Below, one piece after another: positions 2,532-51,868 of a stretch of 64,000 bases of DNA. Source of the DNA: Escherichia coli (lineage in GTDB: Bacteria > Pseudomonadota > Gammaproteobacteria > Enterobacterales > Enterobacteriaceae). Position numbers and translations under genes: made by a program. The notes under the pieces were generated by a model. The model did no database searches. It was not told the DNA's origin and worked only from the letters and a program-made list of their open reading frames with translations. Numbering within the stretch: position 1 is the stretch's first letter; each line of letters opens with the position of its first letter. The stretch lies in NCBI RefSeq assembly GCF_029227855.1, contig NZ_CP074357.1; one strand, 5' to 3'.

Positions 2532-3407
2532 TCAACCTTGTTTGGCGAGGGCCAGCTTAGGGCTTCTTTTGAAGATCTGAAATTGTATGTCGCGACCTTT
2601 CTTAACTTCTTGATAATCGAGATATCCGATAGATTCAAGTTCCCGCATTGCTTTACGAATTATCTGGTTTTGCGTACGAATAGGGGTTGTAAGAAGCAAC
2701 CTTTCCCTCAACCGTTTCATATTAACGAACAACGTACCAGCTGGCATTGCTTCAAAATAAATATAGAGAGATTGCGCAGCTTCTTTTTTAGCCAAAATGT
2801 ATAGAACCTGAAGGCTTAACAATGTCTTATGGTCGTAACGATACAGTTCCCACATAGAAGGATCCCCAACCAACTCAACAGTATCGCTTTTTGGATCAAT
2901 CATAGCCTTCTGCACCAGATGCGTTACTGTGAACCGACCACTCCGAGAGTCTGAGAAGGCAAGCACTACCGATGCAAGGTTCATTAATGACTCTTTAAAG
3001 CGCGCACGAGTTCGTTTGTTGATGTTTGTTGAACTGATACCACACATCTTCGCAAACTCGTTAAAAGTCAGGGTAATCTTCTCGGAAGTAAAACCATATT
3101 TACTGAAAGCCATGATGATCCCGAGCCAGCACTTAAAGTCGGTAGACATAGATAGTTTGACACCAGTTATCTTGATGTCGTCATAACCCTCCGATCTTGC
3201 AATTTCCATACACGAAAGCTCATCAGAGGCATCAACTTCAAAGTTTCGGTCGCGGTTTTCTTTTGTGCCGACAGGGGTAAATACACTCAATCTCAACAGG
3301 GCCACGGGCTGAACCGACTTGGACGAGTTAGGCGTCAGTTGATAAGTCTTACCTGATTCATTACTGGTTACGTCAAAAGGATGGATTAACTCGTTGTTTT
3401 TAATCAT
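2532..3407 (-). CDS. repA: Iteron-binding replication initiator RepA (P1/RepFIB type)
   Basis: 291 aa; conserved blocks shared with recalled P1 RepA / F RepFIB RepA (TVQPVAL.RL.VF, DFK.W.GII, AQ.LY.YFE); iterons on both sides. Confidence 0.85.
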   Translation of the reverse strand: MIKNNELIHPFDVTSNESGKTYQLTPNSSKSVQPVALLRLSVFTPVGTKENRDRNFEVDASDELSCMEIARSEGYDDIKITGVKLSMSTDFKCWLGIIMAFSKYGFTSEKITLTFNEFAKMCGISSTNINKRTRARFKESLMNLASVVLAFSDSRSGRFTVTHLVQKAMIDPKSDTVELVGDPSMWELYRYDHKTLLSLQVLYILAKKEAAQSLYIYFEAMPAGTLFVNMKRLRERLLLTTPIRTQNQIIRKAMRELESIGYLDYQEVKKGRDIQFQIFKRSPKLALAKQG

Positions 3408-3464
3408 TAACTTAACTCGTCGGTGATAAGATTTTCATTTGGCAAACTGTTTATAACATATTCT

Positions 3465-3563
3465 TGCAAATGCTTTTTACGCATTAACCTAAATGCCATA
3501 AGCATTCCAGTAAATGCCTTCCTTATTCATTCAAATGCTTTTCGCATGCATCCGAATGCCGGA
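3465..3563. repeat. Iterons upstream of repA (opposite orientation), likely origin/promoter iterons
   Basis: Repeated AAATGCYTT / CATTCAAATGCTTTTC units, reverse complement of the 2141-2396 iteron family. Confidence 0.65.
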
Positions 3564-3606
3564 TCCTTTCATAAAGTCACTATAATCAATGAGTTAAAGA
3601 TGCCGT

Positions 3607-3654
3607 GATCTTTACTTGAACTCTATTGATCTTTAGTGATCTAAAGAATTGATC
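3607..3654. promoter_or_regulatory. Cluster of four TGATCT (GATC) repeats beside the origin iterons; P1 oriR-like Dam-methylation element
   Basis: GATC at 3607, 3628, 3638 and 3651 within 48 bp, each in a TGATCT context. Confidence 0.55.
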
Positions 3655-3883
3655 TATCCTGTTGAAAACAATGATAAGTCCATATAAAACAAGGAATAGC
3701 GCTCCTTTAACAATATCTACAGATCGCAAACGGAAATGAACGAGGGTCTACTATCATTGTTTTATTCAAGACAGTTTTTATTTTAATTTTATTAAGCAAA
3801 TTTTTTGAGTTTACCTTTTAGATGTATCAGCCCTATTTGGCAAATTTGAGGTTCATGTATCATGTAGTAAACAGGAGGAAGAT

Positions 3884-4939
3884 ATGAACAACAGCAAACA
3901 TACAGTCATTGAAGTGGATACTAATCTAGTTGAAATTGAAAAGGGATTTAATCCCCGAGAGGCGGTAATCGGAGATTTGTGTTACGAACAAGAACCTGTC
4001 AAGTCGATGATTGTGTCAATCAAACAAGCCTTTAAGGAAGGAAGGCAGGTTGATATGATCAAGGTCGTAAAAAGAAAAGGTAAATATTTAGTTCGTCAAG
4101 GTCATACTCGTTTTCATGGCTTAAAATTAGCAATTTCTGAAGGTGCTAATATTCCAAAATTATCTGTTATCCTAATCGATTATAAAAACGAAATTGAAGA
4201 ATACCTTGAGAACCTCGATGGTAACAGAAGCAATGGGCTAAATCCGGTTGGGCAAGCTCATGCATTAGCTCATGCTGTTAGTCTCGGGTATTCGGTTGAA
4301 GAACTAGCAATGCGATATCAACGATCAACTACCGCAATTCGTAATATGCTAAAAATCCTTGATATGCCATTAGAGCTTCAACATTTGATTAGCCTAAATC
4401 TAATCAAAAAAACGCTCGCCATTGAAATAATGTTAAAATATTCCAACGATCACAAAATGGTTTTAAAACATATAGAAGGTTTCTTACCTGGCGTTAAGAA
4501 TATTGAGACTACAACGAGCAAAATTGTAGGCATACCTGAACACAATGCAGCTGGAGCAGGACCAGACACCTTAAATAAAGGCGGACCAGAAAAGAAAAAT
4601 TCGGCAGTCACTCGTAAGACTTTGGGTATTAAGCGCCTCTCGCATAAGAAAACAGAACGGCTAAAATCTGAATTTCTTGAGCTTGTGGAAAGTACACATA
4701 CGGAATCTATAACGAATACTCAAACAGAACTAAAATTTGGTAGAGATAGTGCACACTTGTTCAAAAATGTTAATAGTAATAATGTAATATTTTCCAATGA
4801 TGGTGTTCAAATAATCTTGAATGATGAAAAGCTAAATATTTTATTGTCTTTACTTAACGACGAAAATACAGCAATCATTGTTTCTAAACCAAAATTAGAA
4901 GAGCTTCTGGAAATTCGAGATCTCCTTAAGGAATATTAA
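3884..4939 (+). CDS. ParB/KorB-like DNA-binding protein (ParB N-terminal domain plus HTH), paralog 1
   Basis: 351 aa; GFNPRE and VRQGHTRFHGLKLA (ParB-box-like) then HTH SVEELAMRYQRSTTAIRNMLKILDMPLELQ; RBS AGGAGG. Confidence 0.75.
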   Translation: MNNSKHTVIEVDTNLVEIEKGFNPREAVIGDLCYEQEPVKSMIVSIKQAFKEGRQVDMIKVVKRKGKYLVRQGHTRFHGLKLAISEGANIPKLSVILIDYKNEIEEYLENLDGNRSNGLNPVGQAHALAHAVSLGYSVEELAMRYQRSTTAIRNMLKILDMPLELQHLISLNLIKKTLAIEIMLKYSNDHKMVLKHIEGFLPGVKNIETTTSKIVGIPEHNAAGAGPDTLNKGGPEKKNSAVTRKTLGIKRLSHKKTERLKSEFLELVESTHTESITNTQTELKFGRDSAHLFKNVNSNNVIFSNDGVQIILNDEKLNILLSLLNDENTAIIVSKPKLEELLEIRDLLKEY

Positions 4940-4956
4940 AAACGAGGATTAGTTGA

Positions 4957-5157
4957 GTGATTAAACCTATAAAGCTGACTCTTATCGATAATTATAGTGA
5001 TTTGCTTCTAACTCATGAAGTCCTTAAACGCAACATGGAAGAGTTAGAACACGGTAAACGTTTTGATCAATTTCCTGAAGGGCATGACCACTATGAAAAA
5101 ACTGTGAAAGAAGCTGTAGCAATCGTAGAGGCACGTTTGGAGGTGTTTCGAAAATGA
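4957..5157 (+). CDS. Hypothetical small protein
   Basis: 66 aa, GTG start, immediately downstream of the parB-like gene. Confidence 0.45.
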   Translation: MIKPIKLTLIDNYSDLLLTHEVLKRNMEELEHGKRFDQFPEGHDHYEKTVKEAVAIVEARLEVFRK

Positions 5158-5870
5158 AATCTCTTTTCTTTACTCTTGATGGTCATATGGTACCAGCCTC
5201 AGTGAATGTATCACTTAACGGAGATGGAAATTATTATGCACCTATCGAAAGAGAATGTAACGAATGTGCGGGCACAGGCCACAAAGGGGCTGATTTATGT
5301 GAAAAGTGTCATGGGGTACAAACAGTTGGACCCATTATTGAAAAATTAGTGGCACTAGAGCCAATTACCTTTCTCGATAACATTCCGGAACTGCGTGTTA
5401 ACCCAACACTCGAAGCATGGAAATCCAGAAACCACGTCCTTATTGAGAAAGCAAAAAAGGCTAACACTAAGTTTTCTAATAGTATATTGGCGCAATTAGA
5501 CAATAACCGTTTCTTGACAGAACGCCAGCTGGATTGTTTCTTTACAACTTTTGATGTGATGTTGTCTGAAACTCCGGAAAATGAACAAGAAATTTTAAAA
5601 CATAGCTACAATATCGGCCAGGTCATAAGCATTGAACTAACATTTACTGAAGTCAGGGCCGCGTACGCAAAAAGTAAAGGGAGTTATTTTTTTACATTTA
5701 CTGGTAAAGTTAGAAATGACGGGATCGCTTTAACGGCCGATAAACAGGATCACATTTTATTGGGTGAACGTTATCATTTGACTGGAAAAGTCAGAAAATT
5801 CTATGAATTTGATTCGAAAAATTATGCTGCAATAACAGTTTTTAAGTTAAATAAACTCCAAGACAGTTAA
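5154..5870 (+). CDS. Hypothetical protein with DnaJ-like CxxCxGxG zinc-finger motif
   Basis: 238 aa; CNECAGTGHKG...CEKCHG; ATGA overlap with the upstream ORF. Confidence 0.55.
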   Translation: MKSLFFTLDGHMVPASVNVSLNGDGNYYAPIERECNECAGTGHKGADLCEKCHGVQTVGPIIEKLVALEPITFLDNIPELRVNPTLEAWKSRNHVLIEKAKKANTKFSNSILAQLDNNRFLTERQLDCFFTTFDVMLSETPENEQEILKHSYNIGQVISIELTFTEVRAAYAKSKGSYFFTFTGKVRNDGIALTADKQDHILLGERYHLTGKVRKFYEFDSKNYAAITVFKLNKLQDS

Positions 5871-6101
5871 ATGTTTTTGCTGCTTAAATATAGAGCCAAG
5901 ACTTTAACTGTCGTTAGGACTCACTCACGTAATATTGTTGCTTACGCAATGGGTTTTATCCCTCATAAAGATCTGCGAGTATAAATCTTTTACATTTAAA
6001 TTCTCCTCTATCAGAACCTTTTCTATTGTAAAAAAATGATAATCTTATTAATTATAATTTTAATTTTTTGTATACCAATACCATACAGTTAAGGCTAAAA
6101 G

Positions 6102-6959
6102 GTGATGATGGAGATGGACTTTAAAATGCACAATGATCTGGGTCTCGGTTTCATTTGTAAAAATGCAAGAACATCGTCAAAGCCAACGTTAAGAAAAGTT
6201 ACTTTTCCGGTAAGCGCATATGAAACGTCTAAGCTTTCTTTAACCGGTTTTCAATGCCCCACAGCCTGCCGTTTTCCTTTTTTTGTGCTATGCATGATAA
6301 TCCATAACCATCTTTCGTCTGCATGCCCTATCACCCAAAATGAATGTTCAAATCATATCTCGCAATTTTCTATCGACATTAAAGTACAAGATTGGCTTAG
6401 CCGTTCAAGAGTAGCGTTTATTGATTTCCATAATCTTAGAAATACAGATAAAGCCACTTTAATAACAGTGAACCATCTTGAAGCTTTACTTACTGTTATG
6501 TCGACTACTCTTGTCGCTTATGTTCCATATTCAAAAAAGAGACTAAACTTTAGCTTTCTAAACTCATTCACTTTGTCTAAAACTTCTCAAAGTTACACAT
6601 TAACTTTCCCGGTAGTTCTCAGTCCGCTTTTAGATGCTCTTGGCGACTTCATTCAGGAATGCATAACCGAAAAATTGTTAAAACGACGAAATTCGAATTT
6701 CATGGTTTACGAGTATCTTAAACGTTCAGGCCAGAGCTCTCATAAAGTGGAGGACATTAATAACGACTTACAGCTTAAAAGTCTAAATATAAGACTTATG
6801 AGCGTCCTTACTGGCCTTTCTCAGCAAGGACTCATTTCATTTATTTGCGAAGGAAAGAGGGGCGACCGGAGAATAGAAGAGCTTCAGTTTATACCTTATG
6901 TTCAACGAACTTACCCTGAGGTATTAACTTTTGAGGAATGGATTAGCCCAGTTGATTAG
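6102..6959 (+). CDS. Hypothetical protein; convergent partner of the Dam-like methyltransferase
   Basis: 285 aa ORF in an AT-rich region, RBS present; contains palindrome copy 6194-6206 so the true start may be internal (Met at 6294). Confidence 0.45.
   Translation: MMMEMDFKMHNDLGLGFICKNARTSSKPTLRKVTFPVSAYETSKLSLTGFQCPTACRFPFFVLCMIIHNHLSSACPITQNECSNHISQFSIDIKVQDWLSRSRVAFIDFHNLRNTDKATLITVNHLEALLTVMSTTLVAYVPYSKKRLNFSFLNSFTLSKTSQSYTLTFPVVLSPLLDALGDFIQECITEKLLKRRNSNFMVYEYLKRSGQSSHKVEDINNDLQLKSLNIRLMSVLTGLSQQGLISFICEGKRGDRRIEELQFIPYVQRTYPEVLTFEEWISPVD
6194..6206. repeat. Copy of dispersed 13-bp palindrome AAAAGTTACTTTT
   Basis: Exact copy, inside the annotated 5' part of ORF 6102-6959. Confidence 0.6.
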
Positions 6960-6967
6960 AATTTACT

Positions 6968-7801
6968 CTATTTCAGCACGGCCAGTATTTCTGTTTCCGT
7001 TTTCCGTGTATTCGGCTTACTTCCTACGGATCGGTAAGCGCTGAGTCTGTGTATGACGAATCCACGCTCTTCATAGAGGCCCAAAGTGAATGATGTCAGG
7101 CTATTTGATATCGCAACAGCAGCGCCTTTTCTGTGAGCGTCAACGAGCATATTTGCTAACAGCACGTGGTCGCTTTGGCTGAACGGTTTACCATCGTAAC
7201 TGACAAAACTAGTTTTGCTTGTTTTGTCATATGGCGGATCACAGTAAATCTGATCTCCTTCACCGGTTGCGGCCAGAGTCTCCTCAAAACCAGCGGTGAT
7301 CAGTTCAATACCTGAAAGACGAAATGAAAGGTAGTCTATTTTATTGAGGTCAAGCTTCAGTTCTGTATGTTTCCCCCACGGCACTGAATAGATTCTTTCT
7401 GAGTTATAGCGGCACATACCGTTATAGCCCAGGCGATTCAGGGAGTAAAACAAAGCCGCTCTTTGAAGCGATTGACCAGAAATACAGGTTTTGTTGAAAC
7501 GGTCCCTCATCTCATAGTAGTCCTTTTCGACAAAGGTTTTATCCGCCAAGTTTTGGACCTGATTTATAAAGTTAGTTTTCTGTCTTTGAATAGTCCTGTA
7601 TAGGTTGATCAAGTCTGGATTGCTATCTGCAAGCAATGCATTTTGTGCAAACATGTTCAGAAAAACGGCACCACCGCCTATAAAGGGTTCTACCCACCGG
7701 CAACTATGATCGTGTGGGTAGTGATGGCTGATGAAAGGCATCAGTTTCGTTTTTCCACCAGCCCATTTGATTATCGGCATGTGTCTGAGATGTCGAGTCA
7801 A
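6968..7801 (-). CDS. Dam-family N6-adenine DNA methyltransferase (alpha class)
   Basis: 277 aa; IIKWAGGK, EPFIGGGAVF (motif I), CDPPY (motif IV), NRLGYNGMCRYN; near-colinear with recalled E. coli Dam. Confidence 0.9.
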   Translation of the reverse strand: MTRHLRHMPIIKWAGGKTKLMPFISHHYPHDHSCRWVEPFIGGGAVFLNMFAQNALLADSNPDLINLYRTIQRQKTNFINQVQNLADKTFVEKDYYEMRDRFNKTCISGQSLQRAALFYSLNRLGYNGMCRYNSERIYSVPWGKHTELKLDLNKIDYLSFRLSGIELITAGFEETLAATGEGDQIYCDPPYDKTSKTSFVSYDGKPFSQSDHVLLANMLVDAHRKGAAVAISNSLTSFTLGLYEERGFVIHRLSAYRSVGSKPNTRKTETEILAVLK

Positions 7802-8056
7802 AGTGTCTATACCTGAGAGAGAAATTTAGGTGCTGGTATCGTACCTAACCACGGGCTTTAACTAATAACTTAGGGAGCAAAAAAAAGTTGTTTAAGACGC
7901 ACAGTTTTGACTTTCAGCATTTCGGATTTATAAGATTTTTCCTCACTTATACCTGAACTTTATGTTTTGGATTTATGTATTTGTTTATGAAGCGATTTTT
8001 ATGCCATCACAAGTAATGGGGAGCCACCTTTTTTTGTAAAAAATCAGAATAGGCTC

Positions 8057-8069
8057 AAAAAGTACCTTT
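8057..8069. repeat. Variant copy of dispersed palindrome (AAAAGTACCTTTT)
   Basis: One mismatch to consensus; 93 bp upstream of parB-like gene 8150. Confidence 0.45.
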
Positions 8070-8149
8070 TTTGCGAAAAATTATGAATTTTTTTTTCGGT
8101 AGTATCCCCGCTACGCAGAAAGTAAGCAGAAAAATGTAACGGAGCCCCT

Positions 8150-9313
8150 ATGAGTGTTTTACTGACAGAACCTACACAGCAAGCTAATGACAAGGTCTTT
8201 AAAACGGCCCATGTTGCCTTTTCAGTAGTTACTGGCACAGGCCGTTACGTCACTGGGCTTAAACAGTTCCGTGATGCAAACCCTGAACTTTGTACTGAAG
8301 TAAGTGACCAGAAAGCATGGGCTATCCACCCTTCAGTAATTCAGGTCACGCCAGGCTTCAACTCCCGCGAAATGGGAATGGGTGACGATTACTATAAGCT
8401 CCCTGAGGTTGAAGAACACATCTACAACATCAAGAATGCCTACATTCGAGGTGACTATGTAGACCCTATCCGAGTACGTGTCATTGATGGGGTACCTTTT
8501 GTTCGCCAGGGGCACTGCCGTTTAAAAGCCGCAATGATGGCATGTGATGAAGATCATGACATCACAATCCTTTGCGTTGAGATTAAAGAAGATGAAATTG
8601 GCTGTGAGCTCGCGACCATTGATGGTAACCGTGGTCTTGCGCTTTCTCCTGTTGCGCTTGGCGAGTCCTATCGTCGCCTACATTCTCTTGCTGGCTGGTC
8701 ACTCGAACGAATTGCTCAACGTGAAAATAAAAGCCCGACGACCATCAGTTCTCTTATCCGCCTGACAACCTGTTCTGTTGTTATCAAGAAATGGATTCAT
8801 GCTGACGCTATTTCGTATGTTAACGTGCTTTCACTGATCGATGAGCTCGGCGAAACAGAAGCAATTTCACGTATCAAGAAGATGATCGCAGAACTTGAGC
8901 AGGCCGATGCGAATGGCATCACGGTGAAAAAAACCCAACATGGTCAGGTACGAGTCAGACCTTCAGACTTCAAGCCAGCACGGATTCCGCCGGTTATTGC
9001 CACAAAAGCCGTAGAAGGCGTCAAACTCATCACCACCAGCTTATTACAGAAACTGGGGGATATTGAATTGCCGGAGCTGACAGATTCAAGTGCTGACGAA
9101 GAAATCAACATTACGTTGAACCGCAGTACTCTGGAGATGTTGAGAAATCTTTCAAAAGAGATCACAGAATCAGAGAACAAGCAGCTTCGCCGTGCGGAGA
9201 ATCGTCAGGCAAAACTTAATGGTGAGAAGCCAAAATACCCACGTAAAAAAAATGCTAAGAAGGCAGGGGAAGAGACCGATCAGGATACTGACCCACAGCC
9301 GGACGCAGAATAA
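8150..9313 (+). CDS. ParB/KorB-like DNA-binding protein, paralog 2
   Basis: 387 aa; GFNSRE and VRQGHCRLKAA, HTH LERIAQRENKSPTTISSLIRL; acidic C-terminus. Confidence 0.75.
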   Translation: MSVLLTEPTQQANDKVFKTAHVAFSVVTGTGRYVTGLKQFRDANPELCTEVSDQKAWAIHPSVIQVTPGFNSREMGMGDDYYKLPEVEEHIYNIKNAYIRGDYVDPIRVRVIDGVPFVRQGHCRLKAAMMACDEDHDITILCVEIKEDEIGCELATIDGNRGLALSPVALGESYRRLHSLAGWSLERIAQRENKSPTTISSLIRLTTCSVVIKKWIHADAISYVNVLSLIDELGETEAISRIKKMIAELEQADANGITVKKTQHGQVRVRPSDFKPARIPPVIATKAVEGVKLITTSLLQKLGDIELPELTDSSADEEINITLNRSTLEMLRNLSKEITESENKQLRRAENRQAKLNGEKPKYPRKKNAKKAGEETDQDTDPQPDAE

Positions 9314-9402
9314 TTTACTTTTGGCAAAGTGCTGGTTTTGTCAGAGTCATTAAGGATTCAGGCTTTTTGCCCGCCTTTTTTAAACCTCCATGTATCGTTC
9401 TT

Positions 9403-9429
9403 GCCCCGTTTATGCGGGGCTTTTTTTTT
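9403..9429 (+). terminator. Rho-independent terminator
   Basis: GC hairpin GCCCCGTTTATGCGGGGC followed by T9. Confidence 0.7.
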
Positions 9430-9560
9430 GCTTCTTTCTATGAGTTGACATCTTTAAGTTTTATTCAGAGACATAAAAAACTTTTTCGTGTCACTGAACC
9501 TATTAGGTTACTGAGCGACGTTGCTATCCTGGTAAAAGTTTTTTCTAAAGGACCGGTAAA

Positions 9561-11252
9561 ATGTCATCTCTTGATTCTGAAGCTAAACCCGATAATGCAG
9601 GTCACAGCGTACTGGCTTTAACAACCTCTCATAGCCTGGTGGTTAGCTCTCCTGAAACATTTCTTCCAGATATGCGCAAAGAGCTCGGCATTATCGCGGA
9701 TCTTGTTGAGTCCTATAATGATGAACTCTGCTTGTTGAAACTCATGGCTGTCCAGTTCAAAACCCACAATCACCAGAAACTTTATTCTTATCTCTCAGGC
9801 TACAACCACAGCATCTCAGAAGCGGATGCTTTGTTCGCAGAAAACGCTCTGAGATCAGAATACTGGAAACGCGTTATGGCACTCACTGATGTTTTGCCTA
9901 TCATGTCGGATGCCAAACGTAACGAATGGGATAAGCAGTTTACGGCCGACCGTTATATTATGCCGCCTCAGGTGATCCCTGATTTCACAGCTGACGCTGT
10001 AGTGGGCACAGTCGTTGCTTTGCTTAATGACCGCAATCAATTTATTAAAGAAAGGGTTTACGACGTCTTCCAGTCTCTGAGCCGCAGTCACAAGACAAAC
10101 AAAGCTTTTGGGTTCTCCACCCGCATGATCACTACCGGAGTTTGCGAGCCGTCTAAATACCCCTGGCAGAAATTAAGGGTGGATTTTAAAGAGTCTGGCA
10201 TTTCACCGCTGAGCGAGCTCCGCGTTATATGCGCATTCTTCCGTGGCGAACAGGTGAAGGCGATCCATAACACCAAATCATTGGTTGAGGCGTTGGTCGA
10301 ACATGAGGGGTTCAGAAAATGGATCTGCATCGATGGCAACAGTATTCGTTTCAGGGTTTACAAAAATGGATCAATGCATATTGACGTCCACCCTGATATC
10401 GCCGAGCGGCTTAACAATATTTTATCAGCTATCGTACCGCTGGCATTACCTGCCGACCGTATGGCTCATAGCAAGAAATCTTTGGAGGCATTCCCTGTAC
10501 TTAAGCAGTGCATCGACTTTGATACCCGGATGCAGCTTTCTGAACTGATGTTTAAAAATGACGGGGACAATAAATGGAGTTGCTGGACATCTTTAGGGTC
10601 TCTCGCCGAACGCAAATCTTCGAGTGTTGCCGCTGACACCCTTCGGTTCTTAGGGGCAACAGTAACAAAATACGATGTGACATTTTCCTATGATCCGTGT
10701 GAGGTTATTCGTTACATCGGCCAGATAGGGGAGATGCCTGATATTGTATCGCATCAGTTTTACCCTTCATCTTGCCGAATCAGCGAATATGTATCTTCCC
10801 TGCTTGGTGCAGGGGAAGGGGATACCCTCCTGGAGCCTAATATTGGCCATGCGGATTTGCTTAAATCATTCCCTGCCGGTGTGATCGTTACTGGCATCGA
10901 GCTTGATACTTTGAATTGCCTTATCTCCCGGGCTAAGGGATACGATACGACAGAAGCTGACTTCCTCACATGGTCTAAGTCTAATCAACAGAAGAAGTTT
11001 GATTATGTCGTGATGAACCCACCTTTTGCCGATAACCGGGCCAGGCTGCATCTCCAGGCAGCTGCATCTCATCTCGCAGCCGGGGGATCTCTAGCAGCCG
11101 TTCTTCCATTATCTCTTCAGGGGCTCGATAACCTTTTGGGGGAAGAATTCCGGACGGAATGGATGGACGTTTTTGAGAACGAGTTTGAAAACACGACCGT
11201 TTCGGTTCGCATCCTGTACGCCGAACGTATTCAACAAGAGGAAGTCCTATGA
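9561..11252 (+). CDS. N6-adenine-type DNA methyltransferase with large N-terminal domain
   Basis: 563 aa; C-terminal catalytic region with EPNIGHADLL (motif I-like) and VVMNPPF (motif IV); paralogous to the MTase domain of 28362-29186. Confidence 0.75.
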   Translation: MSSLDSEAKPDNAGHSVLALTTSHSLVVSSPETFLPDMRKELGIIADLVESYNDELCLLKLMAVQFKTHNHQKLYSYLSGYNHSISEADALFAENALRSEYWKRVMALTDVLPIMSDAKRNEWDKQFTADRYIMPPQVIPDFTADAVVGTVVALLNDRNQFIKERVYDVFQSLSRSHKTNKAFGFSTRMITTGVCEPSKYPWQKLRVDFKESGISPLSELRVICAFFRGEQVKAIHNTKSLVEALVEHEGFRKWICIDGNSIRFRVYKNGSMHIDVHPDIAERLNNILSAIVPLALPADRMAHSKKSLEAFPVLKQCIDFDTRMQLSELMFKNDGDNKWSCWTSLGSLAERKSSSVAADTLRFLGATVTKYDVTFSYDPCEVIRYIGQIGEMPDIVSHQFYPSSCRISEYVSSLLGAGEGDTLLEPNIGHADLLKSFPAGVIVTGIELDTLNCLISRAKGYDTTEADFLTWSKSNQQKKFDYVVMNPPFADNRARLHLQAAASHLAAGGSLAAVLPLSLQGLDNLLGEEFRTEWMDVFENEFENTTVSVRILYAERIQQEEVL

Positions 11253-11425
11253 GCAACCAACCCACCAGCCTGCCAGAAGAAGATATTGAGTTTGTTATGG
11301 ATACCTTTCAGAGGAGCATGGGTAAATCCAAGCCTGTCAGGGATACTCAACTAGAGGGTGAGAAACCGCAAAGTAAAGAGTCCGCAAACTCAACTGAAAA
11401 CCCCGGTTATGAAGAATTCTATTAA
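11249..11425 (+). CDS. Small acidic hypothetical protein, translationally coupled to the upstream methyltransferase
   Basis: 58 codons, ATGA overlap with the MTase stop; below the ORF-track length cutoff. Confidence 0.35.
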   Translation: MSNQPTSLPEEDIEFVMDTFQRSMGKSKPVRDTQLEGEKPQSKESANSTENPGYEEFY

Positions 11426-11647
11426 TTACGCTCATGATATCCTGGTGCAGTTATTTAGAATGATATTTGAGGGATGGGGGACATTGTGATTAAAAGGCGT
11501 AACATTCGACGATCAGTTTATGGATTGCTTATTGTTCTTATCGCCGGAAATGTGTGGTTAGGCCGTAAGCGTCGTCTGAGTACCGTCTGGTCCCGAATCC
11601 AGGATCCTGTAACTTAAGCACCCACTTATTTTGCAGGTGGACACCTC

Positions 11648-12031
11648 ATGCGCGCTAAAGAAAGACTTCCCCGGAAACACTATTCCCCTGAATTCAAAAT
11701 GGAACTGGTCAGGCTGGCTCTTGAAGAAGAAGGCAGTATTGCCGCACTGGCCCGGAAACATGACGTCAATGATAACCTGCTCTTTAAATGGATAAGGCTC
11801 TGGCAGCGTGAAGGGCGGGTCTGTCGGCCCCGAAAAAACTCATCGTCGCTTCCTGCCCTGATACCCGTGCAGCTTCAGGCGGGCTCTTCTCTCCCAACCT
11901 TCGAACTACCATCCTGCTCTCCTCCCGCTACCTGCCACATAAAATGTCGGGGAGGAGAAATAACACTGACTCATCCCTCTGCTGAACTCATGAGCACTGT
12001 CCTGCGCGAACTGATGCGGGGGCCTGTATGA
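11648..12031 (+). CDS. IS66-family accessory protein TnpA
   Basis: 127 aa; HTH-like N-terminus typical of IS66 orf1. Confidence 0.8.
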   Translation: MRAKERLPRKHYSPEFKMELVRLALEEEGSIAALARKHDVNDNLLFKWIRLWQREGRVCRPRKNSSSLPALIPVQLQAGSSLPTFELPSCSPPATCHIKCRGGEITLTHPSAELMSTVLRELMRGPV

Positions 12032-21097: not shown

Positions 21098-22727
21098 GTC
21101 AACGGTAATGAGTCAAAAGTCATTACCGTTGTCATTGTTCTCTACCACCCTATGTAGATCGAGATTGCGAAATTCAACGCTTTCTCCTGAGTCACCTGTT
21201 AACACCCGGTTTCTACGCTTTACTTCATTGGCCAGTACATCCAACGGAAAATATCGTAACGGGGTGACAATGGCAGTGAGTTGACCCACTCACTACCATC
21301 GACATTCAAATCCCGGCTTCTCTGGTAGCTATAGTGACAATGGTAATGATGTGTACCTTACTGGCATTGTCATTGTCCTCCGAGTGTGCGTTCAGCTTTG
21401 GGAGGACACCGGAACTTAATGCGGCGAGTCACGGCCATTGTGAATCTCGATTGGATTGGCGAATACGGCTTCCGGTTGGGCCAGATGTCAATGGTTATGC
21501 TTCATCCAGCTCATTACTGTAGTCATTGCCGTTCAGTTGAGCTGATGCTCCTCTCATTCTATATGGCGACAACGGTAGTGAGCCCAGAAAGTGACTACCG
21601 TTGTCATGGCCGTCCAGTAGAGCGGGTCAACCTCTTAACTCACAGGGTGACAACGGTAGTGAGCCCAGAAAGTGACTACCGTTGTCATGGCCGTCCAGTA
21701 GAGCGGGTCAACCTCTTAACTCACAGGGTGACAACGGTATTGAGCCCAGAAAGTCACTACCGTTGTCATGGCCGTCTGGTTAAGCAGATCATCCTCTCAA
21801 TTCACAGGGTGACAATGGTAGTGAGCCTATTAAGTCATTACCGTTGTCATTGCCATCCAGAAGAGCGGATGATCCTCTCAATTCATACGGCGACAATGGC
21901 AGTGAGCCCAGCAAGTCACTTCCGTTGTCATAGCCTTCCAGAAGAGCAGATGAGCCTCTTAATTAACAGGGTGACAACGGTAGTGAGCTCATTAAGTCAT
22001 TACCATTGTCATGGACGTACAGCTGAGCTGCTCATCCTCTCAATTCACACACCGACAATGGTAGTGAGCTATTAAAGTCACTACCATTGTCATATACGTC
22101 CAGTTAAGTGGACCATCCTCTCAATACACACGGTGACAACGGTAGTGAGCCATTAGAATCACTACCGTTGTCATTGCTTTTCAGGTGCACTGATAAGGCT
22201 CTCAATAGACACGACGACAATGGCAGTGAGCAATTAGAGTCACTACCGTTGTCATTGCTTTTCAGGTGCACTGATAAGGCTCTCAATAGACACGACGACA
22301 ATGGCAGTGAGCAATTAGAGTCACTACCGTTGTCATTGCTTTCAGCTGAGCTGATAAGGTACGTCATTTACACGATGACAATGGCAGTGAGCCAATCGAG
22401 TCACTACCGTTGTTAATGCCGACCAACCGAGGGAAGGGTCCGCTCAAAGAACTGAGTGACAACAGTAGTGAGATCATCCAATCACTACCATTGTCAGCTT
22501 AAACCTGTAGGACGAAGAGGCTTGTCCGATAAAATGACGACAATGGAAATGAGCCTATCCATCACTACCACTGTCATTAAAGTCCAGCGGTTCAACGTTA
22601 ATCAGTAGCTCCGGATGACAATGGTTGTGAGTCAGGCAATTCCCAAGCATTAGGTGACAGCAGCGTAACACCTCTAAGCTCACTTCTGTTGTCAGGGGTT
22701 AGGGTATTGAGTCTCTACCGTCGTCAG
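21098..22727. repeat. Tandem array of about 20 inverted-iteron units (GACAAYGGYAGTGAG-n8-CTCACTACCGTTGTC), period about 78 bp
   Basis: Read directly; the 21-bp iteron core appears as palindromic pairs separated by semi-conserved roughly 35-bp linkers. Confidence 0.85.
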
Positions 22728-22745: not shown

Positions 22746-23986
<1,241 letters not shown>

Positions 23987-24030: not shown

Positions 24031-24325
24031 CAGTGTTTCTGAGACACCAGTATTGCAGATCACTACAATTGTCACTTAAATATCGACGGGGGAGTAGATG
24101 CAAGTGACTGGCTAACCAGTACCAGTTTAGATTCAAAACGATCCCATCTTTGTGGATGCGCTTGAGTAAGCTCGTATGACGATATGTCAGAGAAGTGACA
24201 ACAGGTGTGAGTTGCCGGACTCACTCCCGTTGTCATCCCCGGTTGAAGGAAGAGAATCCCCGGGGCTGTATATTTACCAAGTATCCTTACTCAAGGGGTT
24301 CGACACTCACTCCCATTGTCGTAAT
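24031..24325. repeat. Continuation of the inverted-iteron array beyond the IS3-family element
   Basis: Units at about 24040, 24205-24240 and 24295-24320 (e.g. GTGACAACAGGTGTGAGTT...ACTCACTCCCGTTGTCAT). Confidence 0.7.
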
Positions 24326-24373: not shown

Positions 24374-24385
24374 AAAGTAACTTTT
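24374..24385. repeat. Copy of dispersed palindrome (AAAGTAACTTTT)
   Basis: Read directly. Confidence 0.55.
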
Positions 24386-24487: not shown

Positions 24488-26908
24488 TTACTTCAACTCG
24501 TCGATCTGAATCATGAATTCTGAGGTGCCAACTTTCCCATTTTCGGAAGGATAAACGGGTAACAGAAGATTATCCCCCTGGCCCATATCTATTTGCACCT
24601 CAACTGACTCGCCTGGAGCCGCCTGTGCCCCATTAAATTTAATACCGAAGGCTGCATCCTTCCGCACAGTCAGCGTTGCGTTCTGGACCCCTTTAGCAAT
24701 TTCTCCATTTGTCTTACGCAGAACGTTAGTGGACAGGTACGCAAGTGGTACGCCATCTGTCGTTTTGAGAGGTGAACTGACCGACAATGTGCGTAGATTA
24801 TGTAACTGCACAAGGTTATTCGGTAGATAACTGAACTTCTGAGTATAGGTTTTGGTATTCGACTGACTATCGGCAACTGTTACGCTAATTGAATAATTTT
24901 CAGATGGTTCGAAATTTGGGAACAGCCTCGGATACTCAGGCATGTATGTATCTTTGCCTGCCGGTGACCACGTAAGCTCAACGTTATCAGCTGTGGGGCC
25001 ACCTACGAGCTGAAGACGGGTTATCCTCGGGGTTGTCAGATTATCTGCCAGAGCGATCCTGAGGTTCTCCAGGCCGTACACTACCGTATCGTCTTTTACC
25101 GGCTTTCCGTCGAATGTTATGGCCACTGTCGGAGGAGTGTTATCCAGAGCAATTTCTCCGAAAGTTTTATTGGTCTGGTTCTGGAAGAAGTCCCTGATGT
25201 TGACCTCAACGTTGTATTTTCCTTCAGACTGACGGGATAAATCATAAGCAATCGTGTAGTTACCTGAGATACGAGATTTGATTACGCCTGTTGGTGACAT
25301 CCGGGTACCGGTGTTCTTATCGGAAAGATAAAATTCCCTCAATGAGACCGAGTCGAACCAGTTACCATCGCCTTCAAGTGACGCCAGTACATCCAGCTGC
25401 TTGTTAGTCTCGTCATATGATATCGAGTTTATTACCGGCAGTTGTTTATTGTTCCAGCGTGTCATAATCCATTGCTCAGACCGCAAAATGGGATTGCTGA
25501 TGCTGCGAACGAAGTAAAGGATTCTATTGTAGCCCTGGGTACCCAAGGCCATATCAAACGTCTCAGGCGCTTCACACGAGGTTTTTCCTGCCGGAATGGT
25601 GCAGGTCGCCTTACCGCCGATCTCCTGTGCAAAGGGCCGGGCTTCAACGTTAAAACGAAGTCGGGAAATTTTAATTGGCAGTCGTGATGAAGCCACACTC
25701 TCAAAATCCTTCCACTTAACCCAGTTCCCCTTATCATCGAGGAAATCTACCCAGGTACCCGCAAATGCAGGCGTTTGGTTTGCAGATGGGTTTAGAACGA
25801 GGCTGTATGACGGATAATACCCTCCCCACTGGCCAAAGTTCGCCATACGAGCCATATCCCCATTAATTGAGCCATAGGGAAGAGTCATTTCAACATAAGC
25901 ATAAGTGCTGTCTACAGCTATCTCTTTGGGGGCGGAATATTGATTGATGAACTGAAGCCCACCTTCTGAATAAGCACGGTAGTTAGATTTTGGGATCCGG
26001 TAGACTAATCGAATAGGGTTTTCGTTAACGACCATACCGGCTTTGTAAGCCGGATAATTAGAAACCCCGGGTACGACGCTGGAAGACGTATTTGGATCAT
26101 GAACGGCCCACAGTGTCATCTCACCCAGCGTGTTGTCGTAGCGAAATTTTTGAGTTGGCAGCGTTCGGCTATTACCTGCGTTATCGAAGATAACAACTTT
26201 TGCAGTAAAGTCTTCATCCAGGTTGCTGTCTGGTATTCCGGTTCCCTTAACTGAATTCTTAGAGTAAGTGTGGTACATCTTTTGGCCGGATACGTCATAC
26301 TGCATCTGTGTAGTGCTGTAGAGGCTACCGTCCTGCCTGTAAATATATATTAGGCCCTTATCAATACCATTTGCATCACTTACGCCCGAAGAGGTGAAGT
26401 CATACTGCCCCGTTGCCTCTAATCCAAGCTTCCACACGTCACCAGCGGTAGAGCCAGAACCAGTATTAGCGGTAAGAGCATTTGCCGCTGGAGGGGTGAC
26501 ATCAATTAGCCAGTTATAGTTATAGGTCGCTACAGGCTTCTGATTGAGATCTAACACGTTTATCTGAACGACAAATTTGCCTTCACCCAAAGCAGGCAAA
26601 GTTACTTTTTTGCCGTAGAACTCACTACCGTCAGCAGCTGTTAGTCGGTCTGATACACCCGTCCGTGTAGTCGTAGTATTAAGAATGACAGTTCCAGTGT
26701 CTTTCGTGACTTTGACATTAACGAAACGATCAAGACCTGAAATAAGTGTCAAAGTTACCGGTGATGCCGGATTAAGCATAAGACGAGAAGACGGGGCGTG
26801 GATCTCAATACCGTTCGTGTCCTTAAAGGCCGATTCATATATCTGAGCTGGGGCCTGAACAGACATACCGAGTCCGGCTACAGCAGTAATAAAAGCGAGA
26901 TGTTTCAT
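24488..26908 (-). CDS. Large secreted Ig-like-repeat protein, paralog B
   Basis: 806 aa; signal peptide; LIDVTPP and ALDNTPPTVAI motifs; conserved C-terminal block. Confidence 0.7.
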   Translation of the reverse strand: MKHLAFITAVAGLGMSVQAPAQIYESAFKDTNGIEIHAPSSRLMLNPASPVTLTLISGLDRFVNVKVTKDTGTVILNTTTTRTGVSDRLTAADGSEFYGKKVTLPALGEGKFVVQINVLDLNQKPVATYNYNWLIDVTPPAANALTANTGSGSTAGDVWKLGLEATGQYDFTSSGVSDANGIDKGLIYIYRQDGSLYSTTQMQYDVSGQKMYHTYSKNSVKGTGIPDSNLDEDFTAKVVIFDNAGNSRTLPTQKFRYDNTLGEMTLWAVHDPNTSSSVVPGVSNYPAYKAGMVVNENPIRLVYRIPKSNYRAYSEGGLQFINQYSAPKEIAVDSTYAYVEMTLPYGSINGDMARMANFGQWGGYYPSYSLVLNPSANQTPAFAGTWVDFLDDKGNWVKWKDFESVASSRLPIKISRLRFNVEARPFAQEIGGKATCTIPAGKTSCEAPETFDMALGTQGYNRILYFVRSISNPILRSEQWIMTRWNNKQLPVINSISYDETNKQLDVLASLEGDGNWFDSVSLREFYLSDKNTGTRMSPTGVIKSRISGNYTIAYDLSRQSEGKYNVEVNIRDFFQNQTNKTFGEIALDNTPPTVAITFDGKPVKDDTVVYGLENLRIALADNLTTPRITRLQLVGGPTADNVELTWSPAGKDTYMPEYPRLFPNFEPSENYSISVTVADSQSNTKTYTQKFSYLPNNLVQLHNLRTLSVSSPLKTTDGVPLAYLSTNVLRKTNGEIAKGVQNATLTVRKDAAFGIKFNGAQAAPGESVEVQIDMGQGDNLLLPVYPSENGKVGTSEFMIQIDELK

Positions 26909-32313: not shown

Positions 32314-32326
32314 AAAAGTAACTTTT
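32314..32326. repeat. Copy of dispersed 13-bp palindrome (AAAAGTAACTTTT)
   Basis: 147 bp upstream of the likely start 32461. Confidence 0.6.
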
Positions 32327-32460
32327 CTTGTATTTTTGCATTTACGTAAACAAAACAAGTCCCGCCGGGCAGAAAAGAAAAACATTAAAATTAGCTATTT
32401 TCCCGAAAAGATCTCGAACACTGAAAAAGTATCATGGGGAACCTGATCAGGAGACAACCC

Positions 32461-46673: not shown

Positions 46674-46778
46674 GCGTCTGAAACGCGAAACACACGAAAA
46701 TGAAGGGGTTATACAAAAAAAACTTAGCTTTGATCGTGATGTAATGTGGACATCATGTCCAAGCGTTGCTGCATCCAG

Positions 46779-46791
46779 AAAAGTAACTTTA
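46779..46791. repeat. Copy of dispersed palindrome (AAAAGTAACTTTA)
   Basis: 144 bp upstream of gene 46923. Confidence 0.55.
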
Positions 46792-49493: not shown

Positions 49494-49510
49494 AAAGAGC
49501 ATCATCCGGG

Positions 49511-49521
49511 AAAGTTACTTT
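49511..49521. repeat. Copy of dispersed palindrome core (AAAGTTACTTT)
   Basis: 162 bp upstream of gene 49673. Confidence 0.55.
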
Positions 49522-51708: not shown

Positions 51709-51719
51709 GCAGCCAGGAA
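51709..51719. repeat. Copy of dispersed palindrome core (AAAGTAACTTT)
   Basis: 160 bp upstream of gene 51869. Confidence 0.55.
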
Positions 51720-51868
51720 AGTAACTTTCACCTCAAGTGTGACCCTTACTACCTCATTTATGAGTAAACCCCCCCTCTGATATGTCGAAAATGCTCATTT
51801 ATACGAAAATAGTTTCTCTTCAGGTGTGATGTAATTACTGAGAATTCTCCCTGAATGGAAGGCAACCG

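Follow-up and report, generated by a model that had tools for sequence, protein, structure and literature searches.

Our analysis of a 64,000-nt stretch of the Escherichia coli contig NZ_CP074357.1 (hereafter the window; positions refer to it unless another record is named) showed three genes for ParB-like proteins, paralogues 1, 2 and 3, and an 11-bp odd palindrome, AAAGTWACTTT, which is dispersed over the backbone of the IncHI2 plasmid to which the window belongs. The three proteins are very probably orphan ParB-like DNA-binding proteins without relation to partition. We read them as regulators in the style of KorB, which would act sequence-specifically on IncHI backbone genes via the palindrome, and we place this reading a little short of an even chance. 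An earlier reading of the same DNA, made from the sequence letters (the original prediction), had described three ParB/KorB-like proteins without ParA, two of them followed by cargo operons, and had seen in them a functional module with a methyltransferase. Its observation was largely right and its interpretation partly so: an orphan, non-partition and KorB-like nature of the proteins is supported, a functional ParB–methyltransferase module is not. The backbone-wide palindrome, which is the most informative feature and points to a regulatory role, had been missed.

All three open reading frames (ORFs) were present as described, each on the plus strand: paralogue 1 at 3884–4939 (351 aa), paralogue 2 at 8150–9313 (387 aa) and paralogue 3 at 60384–61568 (394 aa). 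The proteins could be aligned over their full length with a mutual identity of 22–25%, and the motifs G-F-N-x-R and R-Q-G-x-x-R were invariant among them. The variant ParB box said to be common to them, V/L-R-Q-G-H/A-C/T-R, was seen in the alignment. Box II reads RQGHTR in paralogue 1, where Thr replaces Cys, RQGHCR in paralogue 2, and RQGACR in paralogue 3, where Ala replaces His. RQGHTR fell onto the canonical A-G-E-R-R-W of solved Noc/ParB proteins upon pairwise alignment. The claim of a ParB-type helix-turn-helix (HTH) was borne out by Pfam, whose HTH_ParB model (PF17762) matched all three proteins (E 1.5e-5, 1.7e-4 and 1.5e-5); these values are modest, and this was the sole domain that Pfam detected. 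The match to TIGR00180 (parB_part) fell under its cutoff. PHROG 1033, a family named 'ParB-like partition protein', matched all three (E 6.8e-25, 3.3e-28 and 1.6e-21) and spanned nearly all of paralogue 2. No matches to the three proteins were found in the PADLOC defence libraries.

The AlphaFold model of paralogue 3 had a predicted local distance difference test (pLDDT) value above 90 for residues 13–255, followed by a disordered linker (residues 256–323, pLDDT <50) and by two or three C-terminal helices of moderate confidence. Upon Foldseek search, the top PDB matches of this model were the KorB chains 8qa9_B and 8qa9_A of the KorB–KorA complex (E 1.3e-7, TM 0.63–0.65 on the target). The next-best matches were ParB and Noc, whose DNA-binding domains were included in the superposition, and the matches to enzymatic ParB/sulfiredoxin (Srx) proteins were much weaker. 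Since motif, profile and structural matches agree, the description 'ParB/KorB-like' is right. The C-terminal halves had been said to differ. This is true of the low-complexity linker, which is variable and disordered, but not of the last ~70 residues, which align in all three proteins. In an alignment of 11 sequences, these residues aligned across the three clades and the IncC homologue, and the column of L363 was nearly invariant. The idea that divergent C-terminal halves underlie different partners is therefore not upheld, as the C-terminal domain of ~70 aa is common to all three. The idea of distinct DNA specificities, on the other hand, fits the recognition helices, which differ among the three clades. 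The helix is well conserved within the paralogue-1 clade (S-T-T-A-I-R-N) and within the paralogue-3 clade (SEQH[LIV]R[QK]), and variable in the paralogue-2 clade.

We built a family profile from the three paralogues and eight relatives and searched it against 1.84 billion cluster representatives. At a cutoff of E<=1e-30 the search returned 195 representatives, and at E<=1e-10 it returned 2348. We aligned 145 members. Their box I reads G-F-N-x-R, where N and R hardly vary, and their box II reads [VIL]-R-[DQE]-G-H-C-R, where G and the final R are invariant and where H is found in 104 members and C in 100. Throughout the family, other residues stand in place of the catalytic Glu and of the first Arg of the GERR motif, and the Arg of box III is not conserved; the pocket retains the Arg of box I, the Gly and final Arg of box II and an Asn in box III. 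The three paralogues match the profile of this 'DGHCR' subfamily and carry GFNxR and R-x-G-H-C-R with the His or the Cys replaced in paralogues 3 and 1. PHROG 1033 is the only group for which their formal membership is claimable. Our literature search found no experimental work on any member of this family, on the IncHI ParB-like proteins or on the DGHCR motif.

The three paralogues fall into separate clades, the members of which reach down to ~35–45% identity. IncHI1 plasmids hold all three paralogue types (58%, 75% and 65% identity), and the pNDM-MAR-type IncHI1B plasmids hold only the types of paralogues 2 and 3 (36% and 35%). In IncC plasmids there is one family member, WP_000268394 (~30% identity), and lytic phages carry members too, such as gp81 of Salmonella phage 9NA. 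The phage and IncC proteins resemble the paralogues in PHROG 1033 membership (30–33% identity), in the common motifs, in the lack of a ParA and in frequently standing near a DNA methyltransferase gene, but differ in that no AAAGTWACTTT palindrome accompanies them. Members of the family often stand within 1–2 kb of orphan DNA methyltransferases, as in IncC plasmids, in phage 9NA and in an island with PsiA and AcrVA2-like genes. This island lies on a 21-kb metagenomic plasmid contig (L017), where a 318-aa member is found together with N6/N4 methyltransferase, AcrVA2-like, HigB and PsiA genes and with three copies of AAAGTnACTTT; it is the clearest leading-region-like context of the family.

The window was identified by sequence match to typed plasmids as backbone of an IncHI2 (R478-type) conjugative plasmid. 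A query of 8.2 kb (3400–11600) was 100% identical to more than 20 plasmids of 190–450 kb from Salmonella, E. coli, Klebsiella and others, and at >=90% identity it matched 1330 plasmid records. A representative plasmid, pESA136_1 (typed as IncHI2A, MOBH, MPF_F and conjugative), is collinear with the window from the RepHI2A replicon to just before the Tra1/oriT region, and window positions equal those of the pESA136_1 record minus 19071. The oriT/mobI region is found ~15 kb beyond the right end of the window, at a distance of ~75 kb from paralogues 1 and 2, and the long co-oriented gene array of the window points toward it.

With regard to partition, the statement that there is no ParA holds for the 64 kb of the window, where no Walker-A ParA was found and the only P-loops were that of IstB and a chance match within an immunoglobulin-like (Ig-like) gene. 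It does not hold for the full replicon. In plasmids identical over the 8.2-kb query, a ParA/ParB pair stands ~16–18 kb to the left, past the Tra2 genes, and the ParB of this pair is a type Ia protein with EGSRRR that adjoins its own ParA. As in the original prediction, the paralogues are not canonical partition proteins: the nearest ParA is ~16 kb away and is paired with a separate ParB. Of the features of a canonical ParABS system, a ParB-type HTH was found in the paralogues, while an adjacent ParA and a box II of the form GERRxR were absent. Because the plasmid already has a separate partition system and no ParA was found in the window, paralogues 1–3 are orphans. Chromosomal ParB/Spo0J and Noc share the two-domain fold with them and bind palindromes of 14–16 bp as dimers, but their sequence matches are weak (E 1e-4 to 3e-2), and the IncHI proteins differ from them in having no ParA, no GERRxR and no conserved box III Arg.

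The palindrome surfaced from a repeat search, in which several small repeat families had AAAGT(A/T)ACTTT in common. The window contains 14 exact copies of AAAGTWACTTT against 0.02 expected from shuffled sequences, and 19 copies against 1.7 expected when one mismatch is allowed. The whole plasmid (266 kb) has 42 exact copies, as compared with 0.19 expected from its composition, and its resistance and accessory DNA (~80 kb) has none. With the flanking bases included, the consensus becomes the 13-bp AAAAGTWACTTTT, i.e. (A)AAAGTWACTTT(T). Annotated intergenic DNA accounts for 26% of the region but for 12 of the 14 window copies (P = 6e-6), which occupy the wider spaces that separate gene clusters.

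Two copies precede paralogue 3, a distal one (AAAGTAACTTT, 60157–60167) and a proximal one (AAAGTTACTTT, 60283–60293), the latter ~21 nt upstream of the ACCTATTAGG element of the putative paralogue-3 promoter. A one-mismatch copy (AAAGTACCTTT, 8059–8069) stands 91 bp upstream of paralogue 2, within a block conserved in IncHI1 that ends in CGGTAGTAT. Further exact copies are located downstream of repHI2A on the Tra2 side (2411–2421) and near the 5′ end (6195–6205) of a 285-aa hypothetical ORF on the plus strand (6102–6959; RefSeq start 6105). Two (16138 and 16203, spanning 16138–16213) lie upstream of the Ig-like protein gene that starts at 16370, one lies in intergenic DNA beside the 3′ end of an Ig-like gene (24374–24384), one within the Ig-like gene at 24488–26908 (−), ~310 nt from its start (26598–26608), and one upstream of the Ig-like gene at 32434 (32315–32325). 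The remaining copies are in intergenic gaps: at an operon head (37519–37529), downstream of the DNA methyltransferase gene at 39855–41105 (41731–41741), after a gene that is like those of 3′-phosphoadenosine 5′-phosphosulfate (PAPS) reductase and DndC (46780–46790), and at 49511–49521 and 51718–51728. Outside the window, the intergenic DNA of oriT/mobI also has a palindrome, which precedes mobI by 187 bp. Near other tra operon heads, palindromes precede the putative trhR (by 87 bp), trhF and, as a group of four, a trhA-like gene in a further record (L011).

Four of the sites, at 46771–46790, 49502–49521, 51709–51728 and 60148–60167, share CC(A/G)G(A/G) as an additional flank immediately 5′ of AAAGTWACTTT; this subset suggests two classes of site or an adjacent second element. 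The three large Ig-like-domain genes (~805–818 aa; 16370–18826, 24488–26908 on the minus strand and 32434–34851) each have a palindrome upstream or within, and an Ig-like gene is found 3′ of the paralogue-2-type gene in every IncHI-like plasmid examined.

The positions of the palindrome are shared between IncHI1 and IncHI2 behind repHI(1/2)A, at the 5′ end of the ORF at 6102, upstream of an Ig-like gene, and upstream of paralogue 3, where both copies are kept. Alignments of these upstream regions showed the palindromes as conserved islands amid diverged flanks. The one-mismatch AAAGTACCTTT before paralogue 2 is the same in IncHI1 and IncHI2, and in two more distant plasmids (L013 and L014) the paralogue-2 orthologue is preceded, at a distance of 43 bp, by a perfect palindrome. 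AAAGTWACTTT was also the only palindrome enriched in the pNDM-MAR-type and the metagenomic IncHI-like plasmids, where the orthologues share only 35–45% identity with the paralogues. Five copies fall within 500 bp upstream of a 35%-identical paralogue-3 orthologue of Klebsiella, as compared with two before paralogue 3 in IncHI1 and IncHI2. Our full-text literature search for the palindrome sequence found nothing in a plasmid context.

KorB and its operator OB provide the closest working analogy. KorB of the IncP-1 plasmids RK2/RP4 is likewise plasmid-encoded, has the ParB N-terminal domain and HTH fold, and gave the best structural match. Palindromes of 13–16 bp are bound by HTH dimers of the ParB family; on RK2, the KorB sites are twelve odd palindromes of 13 bp (TTTAGCSGCTAAA), scattered across the plasmid. 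The IncHI palindrome resembles OB in being a 13-bp odd palindrome that is dispersed in promoters, upstream of promoters and in genes and that includes the promoter region of the candidate regulator itself. The fold and the many copies of one palindrome, promoters included, were thus both found in IncHI, the latter as a cis-element, while the partners of KorB, an adjacent ParA (IncC) and KorA, were not found for the IncHI paralogues. Further differences are that KorB has GERR in box II where the IncHI proteins have RQG[HA][CT]R, that RK2 has a single protein and 12 sites where IncHI2 has three paralogues and 42 sites, and that the operator sequences are unrelated.

On this analogy, the three proteins, in which a disordered linker joins an N-terminal ParB-like domain and a ParB-type HTH to the common helical C-terminal domain of ~70 aa, would bind DNA as sequence-specific dimers and would regulate IncHI backbone genes as KorB does those of RK2. 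The 11–13 bp (A)AAAGTWACTTT(T) would be recognised by one or more of the three, with paralogue 3 as the most probable binder. The target sites would be the promoters of paralogue 3 and of paralogue 2 (the one-mismatch copy), the Ig-like genes and the oriT/mobI region, mainly at operon heads, and from these palindromes transcription would be modulated, either by repression or by activation from a distance; a nucleotide-dependent clamp step may be part of this. We infer the binding, the choice of paralogue, the direction of regulation and the nucleotide dependence. Paralogue 3 would be the best candidate for the binder because its recognition helix is conserved within the clade, because the palindrome persists in plasmids that have no paralogue 1, and because palindromes cluster before paralogue-3 genes.

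A previous study on the IncHI plasmid R27 indicated that most backbone genes are co-regulated, with 139 of 181 genes derepressed in an htdA mutant, and its authors concluded that HtdA controls most R27 genes 'directly or indirectly' (PMC7366339). Two R27 genes annotated as 'partition protein', R0042 and R0153, are distinct from parA/parB (R0020/R0019) and were induced in all conjugation-promoting conditions, and R0042 was among the most highly expressed genes in the R27 table (PMC7366339). By gene order (repHIA R0036 ... Dam ... R0042), R0042 is probably the orthologue of paralogue 2. No recognisable DNA-binding domain was found in the putative TrhR, TrhY and HtdA orthologues of the IncHI2 plasmid, so that the ParB-like proteins could be the DNA-binding layer of the control, although TrhR/TrhY may themselves be the binders of the palindrome.

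Several observations weigh against this regulatory reading. The tie between protein and palindrome is one of association. All of the palindrome-bearing plasmids examined carry both paralogue-2 and paralogue-3 types, or a family member without clade placement, and so presence and absence do not single out the binder. About a third of the 42 copies lie inside genes, according to manual mapping onto the plasmid annotation. The palindrome was absent from 66.5 kb of an IncC plasmid despite its one family member. Similarly, no AAAGTnACTTT was found at six family loci that are not IncHI-like (phages 9NA and fEV-1 and four metagenomic contigs); neither was any other clearly repeated palindrome, so that no covariation of protein and palindrome was seen at these loci. 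The proximal palindrome lies off the likely −35/−10 of the paralogue-3 promoter and makes simple steric repression there unlikely; as it stands ~21 nt upstream of the promoter element, action at a distance or activation would be likelier than occlusion. No KorA-like partner was recognisable among the neighbouring genes, where distant analogues are possible. A KorB-like CTP switch also appears uncertain, because the Glu and one Arg of box II are replaced and the box III Arg is not conserved, and the pocket would thus be remodelled.

The IncC plasmid pNDM10505 (L003) has a palindrome of its own, the unrelated 12-bp TTCACATGTGAA, which occurs three times in 16.5 kb (0.1 expected), at 985, 12029 and 15444. 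Each copy is just upstream of a gene start, parA among them, and TTCACATGTGAA may be an IncC operator.

The palindrome could instead be the cis-element of the TrhR/TrhY–HtdA circuit or of some other plasmid regulator, in which case the ParB-like proteins would be mere members of the regulon and would bind other DNA or bind non-specifically. We consider this unlikely. An odd 13-bp palindrome is the type of site that ParB-family HTH dimers bind, the clusters before paralogue-3 orthologues are typical of autoregulated ParB/KorB genes, and the putative TrhR, TrhY and HtdA orthologues lack, as said, a recognisable DNA-binding domain. Palindromes do stand near the heads of several tra operons (mobI, putative trhR, trhF and the trhA-like gene of L011) and R0042 belongs to the plasmid-wide HtdA-dependent regulon of R27, but a palindrome also precedes the R operon, which was reported to be outside HtdA regulation (PMC7366339). 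The example of HerB (YfjB of F) raises another explanation, namely that the paralogues are establishment factors that act early in the transconjugant from a leading-type region rich in orphan methyltransferases, bind the host chromosome, and reprogramme transcription or counter defence. HerB, an orphan ParB-like protein of the leading region, binds the chromosome and changes how the host transcribes its genes, and it shows that the host chromosome can be a target of orphan ParB-like proteins from plasmids (PMC13370423). It resembles the paralogues in its N-terminal domain and HTH and in having no partition role. The position of family members beside methyltransferase, PsiA, AcrVA2-like and HigB genes in L017 and beside methyltransferases in IncC and phage 9NA, together with the orientation of the gene array of the window toward oriT, would agree with such a function. 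It nevertheless seems rather improbable. HerB has 652 aa, the domains D3 and D4 and a canonical CTP pocket; the IncHI proteins have 351–394 aa and a non-canonical box II, and lack D3/D4. The four-domain architecture of HerB (~650 aa, >=80% coverage per domain) was not found in them, as only the linker and ~70 helical residues follow the HTH. Paralogues 1 and 2 stand ~75 kb from oriT, beside the replicon and Tra2. The binding of HerB was seen at many chromosomal regions, with no motif, and not on the plasmid (PMC13370423), whereas IncHI has a conserved plasmid palindrome, and R0042 is highly expressed in established cells that bear R27 (PMC7366339).

There is also the possibility that the paralogues are accessory centromere-binding or plasmid-organising proteins, with the palindromes as dispersed parS-like sites for compaction, pairing or positioning and with a ParA possibly in trans. 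The 'partition protein' annotation of such genes in R27, the ParB fold, and the array of five palindromes before the Klebsiella paralogue-3 orthologue, which resembles a centromere cluster, are consistent with this. However, the window holds no cognate ParA, the plasmid already has ParAB and, as is known for IncHI plasmids, ParMR, the GERR spreading/CTP motif is lost, and the sites are found backbone-wide at operon heads and not at a single locus; we regard the explanation as very improbable. To an equally small extent, the N-terminal ParB/Srx domain could be enzymatic (a nuclease, an NTP-dependent transferase or an ATPase, as in proteins of the Srx, Osa, DndB and SerK types) and act on DNA or on defence components, in which case the proteins would not be regulators. 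The family motif D/Q-G-H-C-R is closer to the GGCHR, DGQHR and DGHHR of enzymatic ParB/Srx proteins than to GERR, and weak structural matches to sulfiredoxin, SbnI and serine kinase were obtained. Against this, the best matches, over ~230 residues and with the HTH included, are the DNA-binding proteins KorB, ParB and Noc, and the replacement of Cys in paralogue 1 and of His in paralogue 3 indicates that these residues are not essential in all paralogues.

Paralogue 1 had been placed at the head of an operon with a small ORF and a zinc-finger protein, and the gene spacing agrees with this. A 66-codon ORF (4957–5157, +), syntenic in IncHI1 and IncHI-like plasmids, starts 17 nt after paralogue 1, and the start of the gene for a 238-aa protein with a DnaJ/anti-TRAP-type CxxCxGxG zinc finger (5154–5870, +) overlaps its stop by 4 nt. 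The gene order is kept in IncHI1 and in metagenomic IncHI-like plasmids, and paralogue 1 looks like an operon head. We tried the conserved CATGTATCATGTA, just upstream of its start, as an operator motif of its own for paralogue 1 and rejected it, with 2 matches in the window at up to two mismatches against 1.4 expected; the sequence is not kept in more distant paralogue-1 orthologues.

A different result was obtained for paralogue 2 and the 563-aa NPPF methyltransferase, which had been taken as an operon. An intrinsic terminator with a 7-bp GC-rich stem and a T-run (9403–9430, +; also placed at 9403–9420) lies between the stop of paralogue 2 (9313) and the start of the methyltransferase gene (9561), followed by ACCTATTAGG (9499–9508, +), a variant of a recurrent promoter element, AGGTTATTAG. 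In IncHI1, the terminator and the conserved promoter-like element (ACCTATTAGG ... TATCCTGGTA) are found at the same place before the methyltransferase. Since this strong terminator and a separate promoter-like element stand between them, the two genes are neighbours and not an operon. Nor is a functional module of a ParB-like protein and a methyltransferase supported: besides the terminator, the methyltransferase is missing 3′ of the paralogue-2 orthologue in some relatives, namely the pNDM-MAR-type and two other IncHI-like plasmids. The original prediction had also associated such modules with plasmid establishment or anti-defence regions, a placement that is at best tentative for this locus.

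A scan of 3300–11700 with the sigma-70 consensus gave 13 promoter-like matches, fewer than the 18 in shuffled sequences. The recurrent element is composed of a T/A-rich stretch, AGGTTATTAG, and a −10-like hexamer (TATAAT, TTATAT or CATGAT) 17–19 nt downstream. It occurs at least five times in the window (35222, 37642, 42747 and 50449 on the plus strand and 30029 on the minus strand), with variants at 9499 and 60307. The copies stand just upstream of gene starts and look like a family of plasmid-specific promoters.

The 563-aa protein itself (9561–11252, +) and the coupled 58-codon ORF were as described. The ORF (11249–11425, +) overlaps the methyltransferase stop by 4 nt (ATGA) and is kept in IncHI1. 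The protein contains PF13708 (DUF4942) at residues 96–290 (E 4.9e-22) and MTS and N6_Mtase matches at 445–532; motif I (LEPNIGHA) precedes NPPF (486–489). It matched PHROG 6263 from end to end (E 1.6e-112) and is 30–33% identical to proteins of SSU5-type phage-plasmids and of Pseudomonas and Aeromonas phages. Its modelled C-terminal domain has the Rossmann methyltransferase fold of class I enzymes, with M.TaqI, HsdM and M.BseCI among the Foldseek matches; the DUF4942 part gave nothing informative, the only matches being generic Rossmann methyltransferases for the C-terminal domain. The likeness to the DUF4942-methyltransferases of PHROG 6263 phages thus lies in the end-to-end profile match and in the M.TaqI/HsdM-like core. 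No restriction endonuclease gene was found beside it, its neighbours being paralogue 2, the 58-codon ORF and insertion sequences, and the same was found in IncHI1. It is best read, from its domains and neighbours, as an orphan amino-methyltransferase.

A Dam-family orphan N6-adenine DNA methyltransferase gene (6968–7801, −; RefSeq start 7741) lies divergent from paralogue 2. The Dam-family and the DUF4942/NPPF enzymes are read as independent orphans that probably guard plasmid DNA against restriction. They share a conserved backbone block with the ParB-like proteins but are without mechanistic coupling to them.

DUF4942 also stands alone elsewhere on the IncHI2 plasmid, unlike the fused PHROG 6263 form. 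A 272-aa stand-alone DUF4942 protein (PHROG 38825, E 4e-100) is encoded outside the window, within 156689–158709 of the pESA136_1 record, where its gene is translationally coupled to that of a 401-aa coiled-coil-like protein, close to a DNA cytosine methyltransferase. This shows DUF4942 to be a module able to exist without a fused methyltransferase. No report on the function of DUF4942 was found in our literature search.

Another gene of the array (44289–46673) encodes a 794-aa protein with a PAPS-reductase/DndC-like N-terminal domain (PADLOC DndC E 4e-38; BrxP weak). It stands alone, with a palindrome copy just downstream. Pairs of PAPS-reductase and ParB-like genes (IbrA/IbrB type) are known; the two kinds of gene are not adjacent in the window.

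The backbone is broken by insertion sequences of IS21/IS100-type, IS66-family, IS5-family, IS3-family and IS150-like kinds, at 149–1950, 11648–13960, 14277–15245, 22746–23986 and 54935–56304. The IS21 copy at the left end splits repHI2A from the Tra2 genes, which adjoin each other in pESA136_1. Around 14 copies of an 81-bp unit form a large array (21259–22650) adjoining repHI2 (19934–21022), with more at 18949–19720 and 24190–24323, and an IS3-family element is inserted beside the array. Each unit holds the inverted repeat TGACAAYGGTAGTGAG...CTCACTACCRTTGTCA. These repeats are presumably RepHI2 iterons or incompatibility repeats.

IncHI plasmids are carriers of multidrug resistance in typhoid Salmonella and of mcr-1, extended-spectrum beta-lactamase and carbapenemase genes in Enterobacterales. 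In the R27 transcriptomics, most backbone genes responded jointly to temperature and HtdA (PMC7366339), and neither that paper nor the literature covered by our search mentions a common cis-element for this co-regulation. It is possible, though on the whole doubtful, that the IncHI plasmids (HI1, HI2 and pNDM-MAR-type) possess an undescribed KorB-like global control, in which a triplicated GERR-less family, ~40 AAAAGTWACTTTT loading or operator sites and maybe a His-Cys-Arg nucleotide chemistry would form the missing link in the control of most of the backbone by HtdA and TrhR/TrhY. The altered pocket may bear on how far the CTP-switch paradigm of ParB reaches among the orphan ParB-like proteins of plasmids and phages. 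The operon-head palindrome and the three orphan ParB-like HTH proteins together provide a concrete and easily testable model for the global control of IncHI plasmids.

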